A stretch of 63,278 nt of DNA, filler included, from Reclinomonas americana ATCC 50394 (GCA_048213135.1; 14 parts of 14 records of this genome joined end to end with filler, not necessarily neighbours in it), one strand, 5' to 3'; shown: positions 38,628-48,919, numbered from the whole stretch's first letter. Numbers and translations are program-made. The notes: a model not told the origin generated them from the sequence alone.

Positions 38628-39722
38628 ATGTCGCGCGCTGCTCACCCTCTCTTCCTTCTGAACAAGGTACTCGAGGGACACACTGGACAAGTGCTGTCTC
38701 TTGCTGTCACTCCCGATGGTCAGCAAGTTGTGAGTGGAGGTTCCGATAACACTGTGCGCGTGTGGTCGCTGGCAACTGGTGAGCAAGTGCGACAGTTGGT
38801 GGGACACAGCGACTGGGTGCAGTGTGTGGCTGTCACTCCCAATGGTCGGTTCATTGTGAGTGGCGATTGGGATGGCATTGTGCGTGTGTGGTCACTGGCA
38901 ACTGGTGAAGAGGTGCGACGGTTGGAAGGGCACGAAAGTAAGGTGTGGTCGGTCGCCGTTACTCCCGACAGTGAGCATCTTGTTAGTGGTGGTTGGGACA
39001 GCACGCTACGAGTGCGGTCACTGGTGACTGGAGAAGAGGTGCGTCGTTGGGAGGTTGGATGGGGTGTGTTCTCCGTCGCTGTCACTCCCGATGGGCAGCA
39101 CATCGTGAGTGGAGGTGAGGACGAGATGGCAACGTTGTGGTCGATGGAGAGTGGTGAGGAGGTACGACGGTTCGAAGGGCATGACTATGAGGTGTGGTCT
39201 TTGGCTGTCACTGCCGACGGGCAACACATCGTGACTGGCAGTCACGACGACACAGTTCGGGTGTGGTCACTGGCGAGTGGGGAAGAATTGCGATGCCTGC
39301 ACGGACACACTACGTTTGTGCGAAGTGTTGCCGTTACTCCTGATGGCACTTTCGTCGTCAGTGGGAGTTATGACAAGACAGTGCGGGTGTGGGCCTTGGC
39401 GAGCGGAGAAGAAGTGCAGCAGTTGGAGGGTCACACTGAAGTGGTGGAGTGTGTTGCTGTCGCTCCCAATGGCGAGTACGTCGTGAGTGGGAGTCAAGAC
39501 AGCACCGTGCGAGTGTGGTCCACGCCCCGCGGCCTCGCTCAGCATGAACTCCAAATAGCGCAGTCGGCGATGCTGGCTGTGCAGGAGTTGCAACGGGAGG
39601 TCGAAGAAGAAGAAGAGGCGGATTCGCGATGCCTGCCGGAGATGGTGTTGCGGTGCTTCATCGTGGAGGAGGCGGAGGTCGTGCGGTTCCGATGCTCCGC
39701 GGATCCCGAGTGGCAAGTGTGA
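38628..39722 (+). CDS. Intronless 7xWD40 protein with conserved C-terminal tail, array copy a
   Basis: ATG at 38628; seven GH..V..VAVTPDG..VSG..D.TVRVW repeats; tail RCLPEMVLRCFIVEEAEV. Confidence 0.9.
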   Translation: MSRAAHPLFLLNKVLEGHTGQVLSLAVTPDGQQVVSGGSDNTVRVWSLATGEQVRQLVGHSDWVQCVAVTPNGRFIVSGDWDGIVRVWSLATGEEVRRLEGHESKVWSVAVTPDSEHLVSGGWDSTLRVRSLVTGEEVRRWEVGWGVFSVAVTPDGQHIVSGGEDEMATLWSMESGEEVRRFEGHDYEVWSLAVTADGQHIVTGSHDDTVRVWSLASGEELRCLHGHTTFVRSVAVTPDGTFVVSGSYDKTVRVWALASGEEVQQLEGHTEVVECVAVAPNGEYVVSGSQDSTVRVWSTPRGLAQHELQIAQSAMLAVQELQREVEEEEEADSRCLPEMVLRCFIVEEAEVVRFRCSADPEWQV

Positions 39723-40079
39723 TGCACTTCAGATGGTGATGCGCGAACGCCTGGAGCATTATTTGCTGCCTCTCTCGCTTTTCTTGTGGCCCTGGGCCGC
39801 CCGGCCGAAGTGAGCGCGGAAGTGACTCGTTCTTATTATCTTTCTCTTCCTCTTTTCTCTCCTCCCTATCACACTCTCAATCCCCCTTTTTCTCAGCCTC
39901 ATCCGAGCTTGTAATGTAACTATGCCGTGCCTCTGCTTGTGCACGGTTTGCGAGCTTTCTGCAACAAGGAAGTCCCTTGGTCCGAAGACGATGACCTTCT
40001 TCAGATGTCAACGTCGATGAATCCTGCTGTCCTCGCTTGGTCTCACACACGGCCGGCACACATTCCGTCACTTGCCCCC

Positions 40080-40791
40080 ATGTCACGCACTGCTTGCCCT
40101 CTCTTCTTGCTGAACAAGGTGCTGGAGGGACGCGCTGGAGAGGTGCGAGCAGTGGCTCTCACTCCCAATGGTCAGCATGTGGTGAGTGGAAGCAGCGACC
40201 ATGTCGTGCGCGTGTGGTCACTGGTGACTGGTGAGCAAGTGCGACGGTTGGAGGGACACACCAACTGGGTGAGTTGTGTGGCTGTCACTCCCGACAGTCG
40301 GCACATCGTGAGTGGGAGCATCGATGAGACTGTGCGCNNNNNNNNNNNNNNNNNNNNNNNNNNNNNNNNNNNNNNNNNNNNTTAATTAATTAANNNNNNN
40401 NNNNNNNNNNNNNNNNNNNNNNNNNNNNNNNNNNNNNAGCGGGGACAAAACATTGCGAGTGTGGTCACTGGGTGGCGTCGAGGTGCGACGGTTGAAGGCG
40501 CACACTGACGTGGTGGAGTGTGTTGCCGTCACTCCCAATGGCGAGCATATCGTGAGTGGGAGTCGAGACAGCACCATCCGAGTGTGGTCCACGCCCCGCG
40601 GCCTCGCTCAGCATGAACTCCGAATAGCGCAGTCGGCAATGCTGGCTGTGCAGGAGTTGCAACGGGAGGTCGAAGAAGAGGAAGAGGCGGATTCGCGATG
40701 CCTGCCGGAGATGGTACTGCGGTGCTTCATTGTCGAGGATGCAGAAGTTGTGCTGTTCCGATGCTCCGCGGATCCCGAGTGGCAAGTGTGA
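40080..40791 (+). CDS. Intronless WD40 array copy b (interrupted by assembly gap)
   Basis: N-terminal repeats before the gap at 40338-40437, last repeat and tail after it; the two halves could belong to different copies. Confidence 0.75.
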
Positions 40792-41159
40792 TGCATTTCA
40801 GATGGTGGTGCACGAATGCCTGGAGCTTTGTTTGCTGCCTCTCTCGCTTTTCTTGTGGCCCTTGGCTGCCCGGTCTGTTTTCCGAAGTGAGCGCGGAAGT
40901 GACTCGTTCTAGTAACTTTCTTTTCTCTCCCTCTTTCTCGCGCTTTCTCTCTCCCTATCACTCAATCCCCTTTTTCTCAGCCTAATCCGAGCTTGCAATG
41001 TAACTATGCCGCGCCTCTGCTTGTGCACGGTTTGCTAGCTTTCTGCAACAGGGACGTCCCTTGGTCCGAAGAAGATGACCGTCTTCAAATGTCAACGTCG
41101 ATGAATCCTGCTGTCCTCGCTTGGTCTCACACGCCGGCCGGCTCTTACTCCGTCGCCCC

Positions 41160-42257
41160 ATGTCACGCGCTGCTTGCCCTCTCTTCCTCTGCAGCAGGGT
41201 ACTGGAGGGACACACTGGCCAGGTACGATCCGTGGCCGTCACTCCCGACGGCAAACACATTGTGAGTGGCAGCCTCGACAACACAGTGCGCGTGTGGTCA
41301 CTGGCGACTGGCGAGCAAGTGCGACAGTTGGTGGGACACACCGACTGGGTGCAGTGTGTAGCTGTCACTCCCAATGGTCGGCACGTCGTGAGTGGCAGCG
41401 ACGATGAAACAGTGCGAGTGTGGTCACTGGCAAGTGGAACAGAGGTGCGACGGTTGCTGGGCCACACTGGCAAGGTGTGGTCGGTCGCCGTTTCCCCCAA
41501 TAGTCAGCGCATTGTGAGTGGCGGGAAAGACAACACGGTACGAGTGTGGTCACTGGCGGCGGGGAAAGAGTTGCGGCGCTTGCCGATTCGATACGGCGCG
41601 TTCTGCGTCGCCGTCACTCCGGATGGGCAGCACGTTGTAAGTGGGGGCGGTGATGAGACAGTGGCGTTGTGGTCCATGGCGAGTGCGGAACAAGTACGGC
41701 TGTTCGAGGGACATTTCTGTGAGGTGTGGTCTGTTGCCGTTACAGCCGACGGGCAACACATCGTGAGCGGCGGTTTGGACAGTGCGATGCGTGTGTGGTC
41801 TCTGGCGGGCAGAGAAGAAGTCTGCTGCCTGAACGGGCACACTGATGCCGTGCTGTCTATCGCTCTCACTCCCGATGGTAGTCACGTCGTCAGCGGGAGC
41901 CACGACAAGACAGTGCGGGTGTGGTCACTGACGAGCGCAGAGGAAGTGTGTCGCCTAGAGGGACACACGGAGTGGGTGCAGTGCGTGGCTGTCACTTTCG
42001 ATGGTCAGCACATTGTAAGTGGGGGTGTGGACAAGACAGTGCGCGTGTGGTCCACGCCGTGCGGCCTCGCTCAGCAGGAGCTCCGCATGGCGCAGTCCGC
42101 CCTGCATGCAGTGCAGGAGTTGCAGCGGGTGGAAGAAGAAGAGGACGGCGAGGTGGGTTTGCGATGTCTGCCGGAGGTGGTGCTGCGCTGCTTTATTGTC
42201 GAGGAGGCGGAGGTTGTGGTGTTTCGCTGCTCCGCGAATCCCGAATGGCACTTGTGA
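41160..42257 (+). CDS. Intronless 7xWD40 array copy c
   Basis: Same architecture as copy a; uninterrupted ORF. Confidence 0.9.
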   Translation: MSRAACPLFLCSRVLEGHTGQVRSVAVTPDGKHIVSGSLDNTVRVWSLATGEQVRQLVGHTDWVQCVAVTPNGRHVVSGSDDETVRVWSLASGTEVRRLLGHTGKVWSVAVSPNSQRIVSGGKDNTVRVWSLAAGKELRRLPIRYGAFCVAVTPDGQHVVSGGGDETVALWSMASAEQVRLFEGHFCEVWSVAVTADGQHIVSGGLDSAMRVWSLAGREEVCCLNGHTDAVLSIALTPDGSHVVSGSHDKTVRVWSLTSAEEVCRLEGHTEWVQCVAVTFDGQHIVSGGVDKTVRVWSTPCGLAQQELRMAQSALHAVQELQRVEEEEDGEVGLRCLPEVVLRCFIVEEAEVVVFRCSANPEWHL

Positions 42258-42600: not shown

Positions 42601-43695
42601 ATGTCAAGCGAGACTCGCCCTCTCTTCGTCTGCAGCAGGGTACTTCAGGGACACACAGGCTTTGTGTATTCTCTCGCGGTCACTCCCGACTGTCAACATG
42701 TTGTGAGCGCAAGTGAGGATACGACGGTGCGTGTGTGGTCACTGCTGACGGGAGAAGAAGTGCGACAGCTGGAGGGACACACTGACTGGGTCATGTCGGT
42801 CGCCGTTACCGCCGATGGTCAACACGTCTTGAGTGCGAGCTATGACAAATCAGTGGTGGTGTGGGTGCTGGCGACGGGCGAACTCGTGCGTCGGTTGGAG
42901 GGCCACACTGGAGGGTTGTGGTCGGTTGCTGTCACTCCCGATAGTCAGCACGTTGTGAGCACTGGCTGGGATAGCACGGTGCGAGTGTGGTCATTGGCAA
43001 GCGGCGAGGAGGTGCGACGATGCGAGGGACACCAAGGAGGTGTGTTCTCTGTCGCCGTCACTCCCGACGGCCAGCACATTGTGAGCGGAGGTGATGATGA
43101 GACAGTGCGAGTGTGGTCCCTCGCGACTGGTGACCAGGTGCGCCAAGTGATGGGGCACACTGATTGGGTGTCGTCGGTGACCGTCACCGCAGATGGTCAG
43201 CATATCGTGAGCGGAAGTGATGACCAGACTGTGCGAATGTGGTTGCTGGAGAGCGGCGAGGAGGTACGACGGCTGAGGGGGCACAATGAATGGGTGAACT
43301 CTGCTGTCGTCACTCTCGATGGTCAGTACATCGTCAGTGCGAGTCGTGACCTAACCGTGCGAGTGTGGTCGACGGTTAAAGGCGAAGAACTGCTGCGGTT
43401 GGAGGGTCACACTGACTGCGTGACATCTGTGGCTGTCGCGGCCAATGGTCAACACATCGTAAGTGGAAGCAACGACAAGACGGTACGTGTGTGGTCCACA
43501 CCGTGTGGCCTCGCTCGACTGGAGCTCCGCGTGGCGCAGTCAGCCCTGCAAGCAGTACAAGAGTTGCAGCAGGAGGAGGAGGAGGAGGAGGAGGAATCGC
43601 GGTGCCTGCCGGAGGTGGTGCTGCGCTGTTTCATGGTCGAGGAGGCGGAGGTTGTGGTGTTCCGGTGCTCCGCGAATCCCGAGTGGCACTTGTGA
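42601..43695 (+). CDS. Intronless 7xWD40 array copy d
   Basis: Same architecture; most regular repeats. Confidence 0.9.
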   Translation: MSSETRPLFVCSRVLQGHTGFVYSLAVTPDCQHVVSASEDTTVRVWSLLTGEEVRQLEGHTDWVMSVAVTADGQHVLSASYDKSVVVWVLATGELVRRLEGHTGGLWSVAVTPDSQHVVSTGWDSTVRVWSLASGEEVRRCEGHQGGVFSVAVTPDGQHIVSGGDDETVRVWSLATGDQVRQVMGHTDWVSSVTVTADGQHIVSGSDDQTVRMWLLESGEEVRRLRGHNEWVNSAVVTLDGQYIVSASRDLTVRVWSTVKGEELLRLEGHTDCVTSVAVAANGQHIVSGSNDKTVRVWSTPCGLARLELRVAQSALQAVQELQQEEEEEEEESRCLPEVVLRCFMVEEAEVVVFRCSANPEWHL

Positions 43696-43948: not shown

Positions 43949-45037
43949 ATGTCACACGCCACTCACCCTCTCTTCCTCTGCACCACGGTGCTACAGGGAC
44001 ACACTAAGCATGTGTGTTCTCTCGCGGTCACACCTGACGGCCAGCATGTGGTGAGCGGTGGTGATGATGGCACAGTGCGCGTGTGGTCACTGGCGAGTGG
44101 GAAGGAGGTTCTACGATTCGAAGGACACACTGGAGGAGTGCGCAGTGTCGGTGTTGCTCCCGACGGTCAGTGCGTCGTGTGCGGGAGTCAGGGCGACGAC
44201 ACAGTGCGTGTGTGGTCTCTCGCGAGCGGCGACGAAATACGACGGTGGAAAGCCAATGCGCTGTGTCTCGCCATCACGCCCGACGGTCAGCACGTCGTGA
44301 CTGCCAGTCCAGACAACACGGTGCGAGTCTGGTCACTGGCGACGGGTAACGAGTTGCACCGATTTGTAGTTCGAAAAAGTGCGTGCTTCATGGCCGTCAC
44401 TCCCGACGGCCTGCACGTGGTGTGTCACAGCAGTTCTGGTGATGGCACACTGCGAGTGATGTCATTGGCCAGTGGCGAAGAAGAGCAGCGATTGCAGACA
44501 GACGCTGGTGTGTTTTGTCTCTCTCCGGATGGCCAACACGTTGTGATCGGGAGTGGCAGTCTTTTCGGGGGCGGCGACGTGCAAGTGTTGTCGATGGTGG
44601 ACGGGAAACAAATCCGACTGCTGGAGGGGCACACTGAATGGGTACTCTCTGTCACTGTCACCCCCGACAGTCAGCACATTGTGAGTGGCAGCTGGGACAA
44701 AACAGCGCGACTGTGGTCTCTGGCGACAGGAGAGGAAGTGCAACGGTTGGAGGGACACACCAACCGCGTTACATCAGTCGCCGTCACTCCCGATGGTCAA
44801 CACATCGTCAGTGGGAGCTGGGATAAGACGGTGCGCGTGTGGTCCACGCCGTGTGGCCTCGCTCGGCGCGAGGTCGATGTTGCGCGCATGGCCATGCTAG
44901 CAGTGCAAGAGTTGCAGCAGGAGGGGGAGGAGGAGGAATCGCGGTGCCTGCCGGAGATGGTGCTGCGCTGTTTCATGGTGGAGGAAGCGGAGGTCGTGGT
45001 GTTCCGGTGCTCAGCAAATCCCGAGTGGCACTTCTGA
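43949..45037 (+). CDS. Intronless 7xWD40 array copy e
   Basis: Same architecture; middle blades divergent, with indels. Confidence 0.9.
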   Translation: MSHATHPLFLCTTVLQGHTKHVCSLAVTPDGQHVVSGGDDGTVRVWSLASGKEVLRFEGHTGGVRSVGVAPDGQCVVCGSQGDDTVRVWSLASGDEIRRWKANALCLAITPDGQHVVTASPDNTVRVWSLATGNELHRFVVRKSACFMAVTPDGLHVVCHSSSGDGTLRVMSLASGEEEQRLQTDAGVFCLSPDGQHVVIGSGSLFGGGDVQVLSMVDGKQIRLLEGHTEWVLSVTVTPDSQHIVSGSWDKTARLWSLATGEEVQRLEGHTNRVTSVAVTPDGQHIVSGSWDKTVRVWSTPCGLARREVDVARMAMLAVQELQQEGEEEESRCLPEMVLRCFMVEEAEVVVFRCSANPEWHF

Positions 45038-45357: not shown

Positions 45358-46461
45358 ATGTCCATCCCCGCAACTCGCTTCGTCTACCAGCGCCTGATAG
45401 CAGGTCACACTGGCATGGTGTACTCTGTCGCCCTCACTCCCGATGACCAGCGCATCGTGAGCGGGAGCTGGGATCACACCGTGCGTGTGTGGTCACTGGC
45501 GACTGGCGCCGAGCTGCAACGCTTTGTGGGGCACGCCGCGTGGGTGTCGACAGTCGCTGTCACTCCCAATGGCGAGTTCGCCGTGAGTGGCAGCTGGGAT
45601 AAGACAGTGCGTGTGTGGTCGTTGGCGAGTGGTGAGCAAGTGCGCCAGTTGGAGGGGCACACTGGAGCCGTCTTGGCCGTCACCGTCACTCCCAGTGGGC
45701 TGCACGTGGTGAGTGTCAGTGTTGACAAGACCGTGCGCGTGTGGTCGCTGGAGAGCGGCGACGAGGAGCGCCGCTTGGAGGGACACACGGACTTGGTGTT
45801 GTCTGTCGCCGTCACCCCCAGCGGCGAGCACATTGTGAGCGGAAGCGATGACAAGACCATACGAGTGTGGTCGTTTGTGACGGGCGAGGAGGTACGACGG
45901 TTGGAGGGGCACACAGGAGAAGTGCACTCAGTCGCCGTCACTCCCGACAGTCGACTCATAGTGAGTGGTGGGTCTGATAAAACTGTGCGCGTGTGGTCGC
46001 TGGCGTGTGGCGAGCAAGTGCGCCGGTTGGACGGCCACGATGCCTCGGTGTTCTCTGTCGCAGTCACTCGCGACGGACGGTACATTGTGAGTGCCAGTGA
46101 GGACAAGACTGTGCGGGTGTGGACTGTGGCCGGAGGTGAGCGGGTGGAATTCTTGTACGGGCGCACGCAGATTATGTTCTGTGTTGCGGTGGCTCGCCAC
46201 GGTCAGCACATTGTCAGCGGGAGTAACGACAAGATAATGCGGGCGTGGTCCACCGAGTGCGGTCTCGCCTTGATTGAGCACGATGCGGCACGCGCGGCCA
46301 TGCAAGCTGTGCAGGCGATGCAGCAGGAGAGCGAGAAGGAGGAGGAGGAGGAGCCAGGTGATCCGCGATGCCTGCCAGAGATGGTACTGCGCTGCTTCAT
46401 CGTTGAAGAGGCGGCTGTCGTCGTGCACCGATGCCTTGCGGATCCTCAGCGGCACCTGTGA
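45358..46461 (+). CDS. Intronless 7xWD40 array copy f
   Basis: Same architecture; most divergent tail, but RCLPEMVLRCFIVEEA is retained. Confidence 0.9.
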   Translation: MSIPATRFVYQRLIAGHTGMVYSVALTPDDQRIVSGSWDHTVRVWSLATGAELQRFVGHAAWVSTVAVTPNGEFAVSGSWDKTVRVWSLASGEQVRQLEGHTGAVLAVTVTPSGLHVVSVSVDKTVRVWSLESGDEERRLEGHTDLVLSVAVTPSGEHIVSGSDDKTIRVWSFVTGEEVRRLEGHTGEVHSVAVTPDSRLIVSGGSDKTVRVWSLACGEQVRRLDGHDASVFSVAVTRDGRYIVSASEDKTVRVWTVAGGERVEFLYGRTQIMFCVAVARHGQHIVSGSNDKIMRAWSTECGLALIEHDAARAAMQAVQAMQQESEKEEEEEPGDPRCLPEMVLRCFIVEEAAVVVHRCLADPQRHL

Positions 46462-46650: not shown

Positions 46651-47512
46651 ATGTCAAGCGCCGCGTCAGTCATTCTCCACAGCCGCGTGCTGGAGGGACA
46701 CGCGGGCGCGGTGTGGTGCGTCGCCATCACTCCCGACGATCAGTGGATTGTGAGTNNNNNNNNNNNNNNNNNNNNNNNNNNNNNNNNNNNNNNNNNNNNT
46801 TAATTAATTAANNNNNNNNNNNNNNNNNNNNNNNNNNNNNNNNNNNNNNNNNNNNGCTGTGCGATGTCTCACAATCACTGTTGATGGGCAGCACGTGGTG
46901 AGTGGCGGATATGACTGCGCGATATGCGTATGGTCACTGGCGACTGGCGAGAAAGTGCGAGAATGGGCGTCACATGATGAGGTCTCATTCTCTCTCGCCG
47001 TCACGCCGAATGGTCAGCACGTTGTGAGCGGGAGTGGCAAGTTGTTCAGAGACGGCGCCGTGCGAGTGTGGTCACTGGCAACTGGCGACGACGTGCGCGT
47101 CTTGGCGAGTGCCACTGGAGTGGTATACTCTGTTGTTGTCACTGTCGACGGTCGGTACGTCGTGAGCGGAGACGGTGACCATGCTGTCCGACTGTTTTCA
47201 CTGGCGGCGGATGGTGACGAAGTGCGACGGCTGGATGGCCATAGTGCCGCGGTCACAGCCGTTGCCGTCACTCGCGATGGCCAGCACATTGTGAGTGCTG
47301 ACCGGACAATCCGAGTGTGGTCCACTCCGCGTGGTCTTGCCCAGGGAGAGGTGGACGGAGCTCGTGTGGCCTTGCAGGCAGTGCAGGAGCTGCAGCAGGA
47401 GGGCGAGGCAGATTCGCGATGCTTGCCGGAGATGGTGCTGCGGTGCTTCATTGTGGAGGAGGCTTATGCTGTGCTGTTCAGATGCGGCACAGATCCCCGT
47501 CTGCATTTGTGA
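46651..47512 (+). CDS. Intronless WD40 array copy g (interrupted by assembly gap)
   Basis: Start before the gap at 46756-46855, C-terminal blades and tail after it. Confidence 0.75.
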
Positions 47513-47668
47513 GGCGACTGGTGGTGGCCACGTTCCTCTCCATTCTCTTGCACGCTAGAGGCGATGAATAAAACCCCACTTCGTACGAGAAGCAAGACGT
47601 CGCTCAACACGTCCAGGAAAATGGTCCTCGTCCGTCTCACTCACACACCGACACCGACTCACCATCAA

Positions 47669-48754
47669 ATGTCAAGCGCTGCTTCTGTCATTCTCGACAG
47701 CCTCGTGCTGGAGGGACACGAGGGCGGGGTGTGCAGTGTCGCCATCACTCCCGACGATCAGCATGTTGTGAGCGGGGGTGTTGACAGCGCAGTGTCTGTG
47801 TGGTCACTGGCGACTGGGAAGGAGGTTCGGCGATTCGAAGCACGTGGTGGTGGAGTGCTTTGTGTCGCCGTTGCTCCCGATGGCCAGCACATTGTGTACG
47901 GGAGTGTGGATGGCATTGTTCAAGTGTGGTCTATGGCGAGCGGTGACGAGGTGCGGTGGTGGAGGGCCGACGCATCGTCGTTCGCCATCACGCCCGATGG
48001 TCAGCACGTGGTGACTGGCGGTATTGACACGCATGTCCATGTGTGGTCTCTGGCGACTGGTGCAGAAGTGCAAGTGTTTCGCGGCCACACGAAACATGTG
48101 CGTTGTGTTACGATCACTCCTGACGGGCAGCACGTGGTGAGTGGCGGATATGACAGGACGATATGCGTATGGTCACTGGCCACTGGCGAGAAAGTGCGAG
48201 AGTGGGAATCAGATGATGAGGTCTTGTTCGCTCTCGCCGTCACTCCGGATGGTCAGCACGTTGTGAGCGGGAGTGGCAAGAGGTACAGTGTCGGCGCAGT
48301 GCGAGTGTGGTCGCTGGCGACTGGCGAACAAGTGCGCTGCTCGACGAGTGCCACTCGAGAGGTATTCTCCGTTGTTGTCACAGTCGATGGTCGGTACGTC
48401 GTGAGCGGAGACGGCGACGAGGCTGTCCGACTGTGGTCACTGGCGGATGGTGAAGAAGTGCGACGGCTGGATGGCCATTTGGCCGCGGTGACAACCGTTG
48501 CTGTCACTCGCAATGGCCAGCACATTGTGAGTGCGGATGGTTGCCAGACAATCCGAGTGTGGTCCACTCCGCATGGTCTTGCCCAGCGAGAGGTGGACGG
48601 AGCTCGTGTGGCCTTGCAGGCAGTGCAGGAGCTGCAGCAGGAGATCGAGGCGGATTCGCGATGCTTGCCGGAGATGGTGCTGCGGTGCTTCATTGTGGAG
48701 GAGGCTGAGGTTGTGCTGTTCCGGTGCAGCACAGATCCCCGTCTGCACTTGTGA
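47669..48754 (+). CDS. Intronless 7xWD40 array copy h
   Basis: Same architecture; close paralogue of g and i. Confidence 0.9.
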   Translation: MSSAASVILDSLVLEGHEGGVCSVAITPDDQHVVSGGVDSAVSVWSLATGKEVRRFEARGGGVLCVAVAPDGQHIVYGSVDGIVQVWSMASGDEVRWWRADASSFAITPDGQHVVTGGIDTHVHVWSLATGAEVQVFRGHTKHVRCVTITPDGQHVVSGGYDRTICVWSLATGEKVREWESDDEVLFALAVTPDGQHVVSGSGKRYSVGAVRVWSLATGEQVRCSTSATREVFSVVVTVDGRYVVSGDGDEAVRLWSLADGEEVRRLDGHLAAVTTVAVTRNGQHIVSADGCQTIRVWSTPHGLAQREVDGARVALQAVQELQQEIEADSRCLPEMVLRCFIVEEAEVVLFRCSTDPRLHL

Positions 48755-48919
48755 GGCGACTGGTGGTGGCCACGTTCCTCTCCTTTCTCTTGCACGCTGG
48801 ATGCGATGAATAAAACCCCACTTCGTACGAGAAGCAAGACGTCGCTCAACACGTCCAGGAAAATGGTCCTCGTCCGTCTCACTCACACCGACACCGACAC
48901 CGACTCACACCATCATCAA

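Follow-up and report, generated by a model that had tools for sequence, protein, structure and literature searches.

Between 38.6 and 50.0 kb of the DNA analysed here, a stretch of 63,278 nucleotides (filler included) from Reclinomonas americana ATCC 50394 that is referred to below as the window, nine genes for WD40 proteins of a single family lie head to tail on the plus strand, and the C-terminal tail common to their products is the subject of this analysis. The DNA of the window is eukaryotic-nuclear-like in character, with a GC content of 50-62% and CT-rich spacers. Seven of the nine copies are intact, uninterrupted single open frames, and runs of N interrupt copies 2 and 7 (at 40338-40437 and 46756-46855, respectively), leaving only their ends readable. 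All seven intact copies can be aligned from a conserved Met-Ser start, counted from which they are 362-367 amino acids long; the longer in-frame upstream ATGs present in some copies are not conserved. Copy 1 occupies 38628..39722 from this start, with an in-frame ATG at 38394 as a less likely alternative, and is followed by copy 2 (40080..40791), copy 3 (41160..42257, 365 residues), copy 4 (42601..43695), copy 5 (43949..45037, 362 residues), copy 6 (45358..46461, 367 residues), copy 7 (46651..47512), copy 8 (47669..48754) and copy 9 (48920..50005), the coordinates of copies 4, 8 and 9 being given from the conserved start. The proteins are composed of a propeller and the tail only, without an NTPase or an N-terminal effector domain. 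In a Pfam scan of three full copies, PF00400 matched seven WD40 stretches in each, the seven repeats of copy 1 among them (E 1e-78 to 2e-74), and the last 70 residues of these three proteins were without any match.

Several details of the array bear on how it was built and how completely it has been assembled. The sequence following the stop codon is common to copies 1 and 2 (approximately 39723-39790 and 40792-40860) and, separately, to copies 7, 8 and 9 (approximately 47513-47575, 48755-48815 and 50006-50070); to judge from the sequence, copies 1-2 and copies 7-9 are subsets of recent duplicates. Copies 8 and 9 also have in common an in-frame upstream stretch that begins MNKTPLRTRSK. Across the window, from 5325 to 61667, there are 13 pairs of 44-N runs whose members are separated by 12 bases, for example 40338-40381 with 40394-40437 and 46756-46799 with 46812-46855. 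As these two pairs fall within copies 2 and 7, the array may be longer than it appears in the assembly, or otherwise arranged.

The tail ranges from 63 to 70 residues in length, and the alignment of all nine contains 30 invariant columns. It begins with a conserved helical segment, GLA..E...A..A..AVQ.[LM]Q, continues with a Glu-rich linker whose length varies by up to 7 residues, and ends with the motif RCLPE[MV]VLRCF[IM]VE[ED]A...[FH]RC..[DN]P. The invariant residues of the first region are G5, L6, A7, E10, A14, A17, A20, V21, Q22 and Q25, with Leu or Met at position 24, and those of the second are R38, C39, L40, P41, E42, V44, L45, R46, C47, F48, V50, E51, A53, V56, R59, C60 and P64. The alignment thereby bears out an earlier note on this DNA, which had described a helix, an acidic linker and a near-invariant motif in every copy; the only detail to be corrected is that its VEEA reads VEDA in copy 2. 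The span to which that note drew attention, 39520-39722, is the tail of copy 1, with tail codons at 39519..39719 (67 residues) and the stop codon at 39720-39722. The remaining tails, all likewise on the plus strand, lie at 40588..40788 (copy 2, 67 residues), 42051..42254 (copy 3, 68 residues, the sequence that was folded alone as described below), 43495..43692 (copy 4, 66 residues), 44843..45034 (copy 5, 64 residues), 46249..46458 (copy 6, 70 residues, with the longest linker), 47321..47509 (copy 7), 48563..48751 (copy 8) and 49814..50002 (copy 9), the last three being 63 residues each. A six-frame motif search finds exactly these nine tails, all on the plus strand, with stop codons ending at 39722, 40791, 42257, 43695, 45037, 46461, 47512, 48754 and 50005. 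A hidden Markov model (HMM) built from 13 tails, which include the four outside relatives introduced below, recovered the same nine at E values of 4e-36 to 2e-31 when all stop-to-stop frames of at least 25 residues were searched without any filter, and nothing else in the six frames of the window scored below E 0.5.

Conservation of the tail exceeds that of the propeller to which it is attached, as the earlier note had also claimed. In the seven gap-free copies, 18 of the 23 columns of the core from RCLPE to FRC are invariant, whereas none of 284 propeller windows of the same width has more than 12, let alone 18, and the mean column entropy is 0.19 in the core and 0.93 in the propeller. At the codon level, 27 of the 30 invariant amino acid columns of the nine copies are encoded by at least two synonymous codons. 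Nei-Gojobori estimates averaged over the seven intact copies (21 pairs) put the proportions of synonymous (pS) and nonsynonymous (pN) differences at 0.41 and 0.12 in the last 33 codons, and at 0.55 and 0.27 in the propeller. Judged by these codon comparisons, conservation of the tail is the outcome of selection on the protein, under a constraint stronger than that acting on the propeller, and the diversity of synonymous codons together with the pS and pN values means that neither gene conversion nor recent duplication explains it.

The alternative that the conserved tail is a by-product of homogenisation of the 3' ends of the tandem repeats, or of some nucleotide-level signal, with no function in the protein, can point to the somewhat lower pS of the last 33 codons and to the 3' flanks common within copies 1-2 and within copies 7-9. 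The lower pS indeed leaves room for a minor contribution from homogenisation. As an account of the conservation itself, this alternative is barely credible, as several codons are used at nearly all of the invariant residues, the tail core has a lower pN/pS than the propeller, and the motif is retained in relatives whose propellers are very different. Gene conversion as the cause can be set aside on the first two of these grounds.

Relatives of the tail outside the window are very few. An exhaustive search of 1.84 billion representative proteins with a profile of the nine tails returned only four: P0001 (116 residues, E 5e-26), a protein derived from an expressed sequence tag (EST) of Reclinomonas americana in EukProt; P0002 (381 residues, E 2e-06); P0003 (394 residues, E 1e-04); and P0004 (a fragment of 57 residues, E 1.5e-04). 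P0001 is at most 70% identical to the copies in the window, and its EST origin indicates that a related gene is transcribed in Reclinomonas americana. The propellers of P0002 and P0003 are only about 21-28% identical to those of the window copies over long tblastn alignments. Beta-propeller Pfam domains precede the tail in all three of the informative relatives (P0001-P0003), P0004 being a fragment. Seven residues, E10, R38, L40, L45, C47, F48 and E51, are invariant across all 13 tails, and the core that these tails share can be written R-x-L-(P)-x-[MV]-[VI]-L-[RE]-C-F-x-x-E-[ED], together with the Ala stripe of the first helix. P0002, P0003 and P0004 end 9-12 residues past VLRCF..E[ED], so that about 25 residues remain from the LP onward; in P0003 the LP itself is missing. 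The tail family is probably jakobid.

Other searches added little to this set. A word-indexed search with the tail region among proteins of 200-639 residues yielded 7 candidates, none of which was scored, and a second with the tail-only alignment of 13 sequences, in which 8000 candidates of 124-2000 residues were scored, recovered only P0002 and P0003. The earlier note had suggested looking for the tail on ankyrin, leucine-rich repeat or kelch proteins, and in the latter search there was no sign of such fusions, although a blank from a search of this type is weak evidence. When full-length P0001-P0003 were included in the profile, so that WD40 columns were scored as well, the 198 matches (691-2000 residues) were ordinary long WD40 proteins and were uninformative about the tail. 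A look-alike search of the ESM Atlas with the tail gave no usable match, a megablast search of one copy against plasmids gave none (a comparison irrelevant for a eukaryote), and no description of the tail was found among the matches listed in literature searches on the Reclinomonas americana nuclear genome and on jakobid WD40 proteins. A PDB sequence search with the tail gave no significant match; its one match, at E 1.9, places window positions 39654-39710 (tail residues 45-65, with the pattern C-F-I-V-..-V-V-.-F-R-C-S-A-D-P) in weak resemblance to the mitoribosomal protein bL36 (6z1p chain AG). The suggestion of the earlier note that the tail may be a new domain fits well with this outcome, in which there is no Pfam family, no PDB sequence relative and only four relatives in so large a collection of proteins.

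The extreme C termini of the window proteins follow a pattern of their own, six of the nine ending in -HL (WHL, RHL or LHL), copies 1 and 2 in WQV and copy 5 in WHF. A peroxisomal targeting signal of type 1 (PTS1) was considered for these ends and set aside: the last two residues of the -HL copies fit the PTS1 consensus, but position -3 (W, L or R) does not, and the relatives end differently.

Structure prediction suggests how the conserved residues of the tail might be arranged. AlphaFold2, run on full-length copy 3 with seven paralogues as the alignment, gave a closed seven-bladed propeller of 28 strands, with predicted local distance difference test (pLDDT) values of 94-98 over residues 11-300. 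As this propeller is complete without the tail, its 28 strands being closed by the N-terminal strand, the tail can be regarded as an appended module. In the same run the tail was predicted as two helices, 300-328 and 337-357, with the mean pLDDT of 10-residue blocks falling from 77 to 46. The tail of copy 3 alone, run with 13 sequences, gave a helix at 3-32, a loop and a helix at 40-62, with a mean pLDDT of 88.7 and a predicted template modelling score (pTM) of 0.74, and the helices fall at the same residues in both runs. The predicted fold is thus an antiparallel two-helix hairpin, in which the first helix would carry GLA..E...A..A..AVQ.[LM]Q, the acidic linker would form a flexible loop, and the second helix, starting from the LP as its N-cap, would carry [MV]VLRCF[IM]VE[ED]A. 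From the spacing of the residues, A7, A14, A17, A20/V21 and L24 of the first helix could pack against the bulkier V44, L45, F48, V55/56 and F58 of the second, which would leave R38, C39, E42, R46, C47, E51, R59 and C60 exposed. Foldseek comparisons of the tail model returned 216 matches in the PDB and 469 in BFVD at E<=10, none of them at E<=0.001; among those listed were AcrA/MexA-type hairpins, F-BAR domains and designed helical hairpins in the PDB, and generic alpha-hairpins in BFVD.

In the propellers, differences between paralogues peak, within each WD40 unit of 42-44 residues, at repeat positions 16-18, 20, 36 and 38 (in GH-T-x-x-V-x-S and G-x-D-x-T), which we take to be the positions of the WD40 top face that contact ligands. 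At these six positions pN/pS is about 0.9, compared with about 0.4 elsewhere, and the positions are, on this sequence evidence, relaxed or diversified. Since the value of about 0.9 was obtained at sites picked post hoc and at divergence near saturation, positive selection on these hot spots is not demonstrated, and it was not retained as an explanation. Variability concentrated at a few positions is also a feature of WD40 repeats with high internal conservation in the HET-E/NWD proteins of fungi and the STAND proteins of bacteria. The window repeats resemble these in being very regular, 42 residues long, and variable just beyond the GH and in the vicinity of the B-C turn Asp, and the profile search that included the WD40 columns returned long proteins of the HET-E, nSTAND1 and caspase-WD40 types. 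Unlike the HET-E/NWD proteins and bacterial STAND NTPases, the window proteins have neither an NTPase nor an N-terminal effector domain and consist of propeller and tail only.

A strongly constrained, constant handle joined to propellers that differ at their presumed binding face is what one would expect of a family of receptors that serve a single partner, and it is from this pattern that we infer a docking role. In the explanation preferred here, to which we would tentatively grant somewhat less than an even chance, the tail is a C-terminal hairpin domain, not described before and restricted to one lineage, of proteins of about 365 residues that otherwise consist only of a seven-bladed WD40 propeller, and it would act as their constant docking or assembly part. 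The hairpin would dock each of the paralogues, whose propellers differ at the six positions, onto one common partner or assembly, so that the paralogues would act as interchangeable receptors for a single downstream machine. A cullin-RING adaptor is, by analogy, one candidate for the partner among several. The receptor picture drawn by the earlier note survives in part, as a constant tail on differing propellers is consistent with variability that peaks at six positions; the identification of the tail as an F-box or cullin box is not supported.

Several considerations weigh against this explanation. The hairpin was predicted from a shallow alignment, and the same segment reached a pLDDT of only about 50 in the full-length run; moreover, AlphaFold2 readily gives a hairpin for any sequence of the helix-linker-helix type. 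Should most of the conserved residues be taken up by packing within the hairpin, little conserved surface may be left for a partner, and no partner of the tail was credibly predicted. The pN/pS of about 0.9 at the six propeller positions does not exceed 1, with the reservations about site choice and saturation already given, and the family has been seen only in the window and in four outside proteins.

A more ambitious form of the same idea is that a protist lineage, comprising jakobids and a few relatives, evolved an adaptor system of its own, in which minimal WD40 receptors, tandemly expanding and with diversified top faces, would plug through the new C-terminal hairpin into one shared effector, such as a cullin-RING ligase engaged through a box unrelated to the F-box, SOCS box or H-box. 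Such a system of variable receptors with a constant handle would have arisen independently of the known families of substrate receptors. We consider this proposition, taken as a whole, rather unlikely.

Homology of the tail to one of the known boxes, as the earlier note had proposed, is a separate matter. In this case the tail would be a diverged member of the F-box, PRANC or cullin-box families and would bind Skp1-Cul1 or ElonginBC-Cul2/5. Like an F-box, the tail does have L-P-x-E, with hydrophobic residues after it, at the N terminus of a helix, and PRANC, like the tail, sits C-terminal to a repeat domain. The pattern LPxx(hydrophobic)Lxx(hydrophobic) occurs in 12 of the 13 tails and is rare in the open frames of the window (14 matches in 45,794 residues, nine of which are these tails). 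The Cul2-box pattern, hydrophobic-Pxx-hydrophobic-xxx-hydrophobic, is also found in 12 of 13; but as it turns up once per 432 residues in the open frames of the window, and in 7% of shuffled tails, its presence says little. The BC-box pattern [STPA]Lxxx[CSA]xxx[LIVA] is present in none of the 13, in agreement with the remark in the earlier note that no canonical BC-box is evident. F-box, F-box-like, PRANC, SOCS_box or related Pfam models (for F-box and PRANC, PF00646, PF12937 and PF09372) match none of the nine tails at E<=10, although HMMER filters may hide very weak matches, and the few matches listed for the tails, at E 0.15-0.26, are to unrelated families. The copy 1 tail gave no F-box match at E<=1, and P0001-P0004 gave none to the F-box, F-box-like, PRANC or SOCS_box models at E<=0.01. 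An F-box is about 40-50 residues long and folds as three short helices, whereas both models of the tail have one helix of 30 residues and one of 23, and the roughly 25 residues that run from the LP to the end of the distant relatives are too few for a three-helix F-box. Foldseek, besides giving no match at E<=0.001, placed no F-box protein among the PDB matches listed and no poxvirus ankyrin protein among the best 50 of the 469 BFVD matches, and the absence of the LP from P0003 removes even the initial resemblance in one relative. Similarity in profile or structure to F-box, PRANC, SOCS or VHL boxes, which had been named beforehand as part of what the proposal should be judged by, was not found, and homology to any of them is very unlikely.

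Other roles for a two-helix tail compete with docking onto a common partner. The hairpin might serve as an oligomerisation module: two proteins, whether copies of one paralogue or of two, would pair through their hairpins in a four-helix bundle, and propeller dimers or mixed assemblies would result. The two predicted helices are amphipathic, and the heptad-like spacing of their conserved Ala, Val, Leu and Phe residues would suit such a bundle; the near-identical tails of nine co-located paralogues would allow mixed assemblies, and the Foldseek neighbours among the matches listed are coiled-coil hairpins. A hairpin whose hydrophobic stripes already satisfy each other has no need of a second hairpin, though, and the invariant E51 within a hydrophobic stripe would be unusual in the core of a bundle. 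Prediction of a two-copy tail complex gave a score of 0.00 in both runs, in which the alignment was unused and the partner's own fold uncertain, and is evidence neither way on pairing. On balance oligomerisation appears doubtful, while still deserving serious attention. Coronins offer a known parallel, in which a propeller is followed by a C-terminal coiled coil that gives oligomers. The window proteins have the same order of seven-bladed WD40 propeller, flexible linker and short C-terminal helical assembly element; they differ in that no coronin family is among the best 25 of 62 Pfam matches to the full protein, and in that the tail is predicted to be a hairpin rather than a single coiled-coil helix.

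Alternatively, the tail might link its propeller to a cullin-RING ligase by analogy rather than by homology, as a helix-loop-helix beside a WD40 propeller that docks a ligase adaptor in the manner in which the H-box of DCAF proteins enters DDB1. DCAFs bind DDB1 through a helix-loop-helix H-box that is N-terminal to the WD40 domain, and that of DCAF1 comprises roughly 30 residues in all (PMC6821201). The resemblance lies in a predicted helix-loop-helix directly adjoining a seven-bladed propeller, as in these receptors of cullin-RING ligase 4 (CRL4), and the combination of a constant tail with variable propellers would suit a family of substrate receptors. The differences are more numerous. The tail is C-terminal, reversing the order found in DCAFs, and its 30-residue first helix is much longer than would be expected beside an H-box of that total size. 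There is no significant match in sequence or fold to a DCAF, DDB2 or another ligase component, the repeats end in RVWS rather than in a WDxR motif, and no ubiquitin-system gene was seen in 79 of the 153 window frames of at least 130 residues outside the array, the sample that was scanned (the longer of overlapping frames being taken). This possibility is accordingly regarded as improbable. A further alternative is suggested by the three invariant Arg-Cys pairs of the nine copies: C39, C47 and C60, with a late His, could form a zinc site in a bL36-like ribbon, or the Arg-Cys pairs could be lipidated, making the tail a Cys-rich segment that binds metal or, when S-acylated, contacts a membrane. 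The sole PDB sequence match, to the bL36-type ribosomal protein, is indeed aligned over C..IV....V...C..DP, but at E 1.9 it is not significant. Of the three Cys, C47 alone is retained in P0003 and P0004, and the third is missing from P0001; copies 1 and 2 have Gln in place of the late His; and helices, not a ribbon, were predicted in each of the structure runs. A Cys-rich function of either kind is therefore highly improbable, and the bL36-like zinc ribbon in particular was rejected.

WD40 proteins with a patchy distribution that includes jakobids, some of them with a C-terminal signal, are represented by Gcp1-Gcp3, which the paper on the mitochondrial type II secretion system describes as Pex7-like and as limited to a small set of protists that includes jakobids and heteroloboseans (PMC8134430). 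Gcp1-Gcp3 are single-copy relatives of Pex7, whereas the window family is a tandem array with HIC-type repeats. The strings VLRCF, LPEMV and ILRCF do not occur in the 10 of its 11 supplementary files that were searched, and Gcp1-Gcp3 were for this reason not considered to be the same family as the window genes.

The interest of the tail derives from its combination of properties. WD40 propellers are among the commonest platforms for protein binding, and it is a connecting handle, such as an F-box, SOCS box or H-box, that makes a family of them useful. The handle described here is under stronger constraint than its propeller, lies outside the described families and occurs only in a deep eukaryotic branch that has been little studied. 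The identity of its partner would reveal either a separate jakobid connection from receptor to effector or a simple assembly element, and if the tail proves to be only a dimerisation hairpin, the finding would be of local interest. In either event the alignment of 13 sequences defines a new domain that can be used in annotating jakobid genomes.

Outside the array, the frames scanned contain pieces of ordinary genes, including a glycosyltransferase 4, a GNAT acetyltransferase, a flavoprotein, a pyridine-nucleotide oxidoreductase, an arylesterase/SGL protein and an unrelated WD40 protein; tRNA and Rfam scans of the window found nothing. The unrelated WD40 gene is an ordinary fragment on the minus strand (3455-4913), without the tail and preceded by a long low-complexity stretch of Ser, Leu and Pro. 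An open frame on the plus strand that runs off the start of the window (2-943) contains a Peptidase_S74 "chaperone of endosialidase" domain (E 5e-08). This domain is chiefly associated with the tail spikes of phages and with proteins of bacteria, and its presence in a nuclear contig of a protist was not expected. Finally, two adjoining open frames on the plus strand, 20970-21689 and 21836-22543, have a CT-rich low-complexity stretch between them. Pfam recognises the second alone, over the C-terminal half of the GNAT acetyltransferase domain, and the pair could represent a single gene that an intron or an assembly frameshift has divided.

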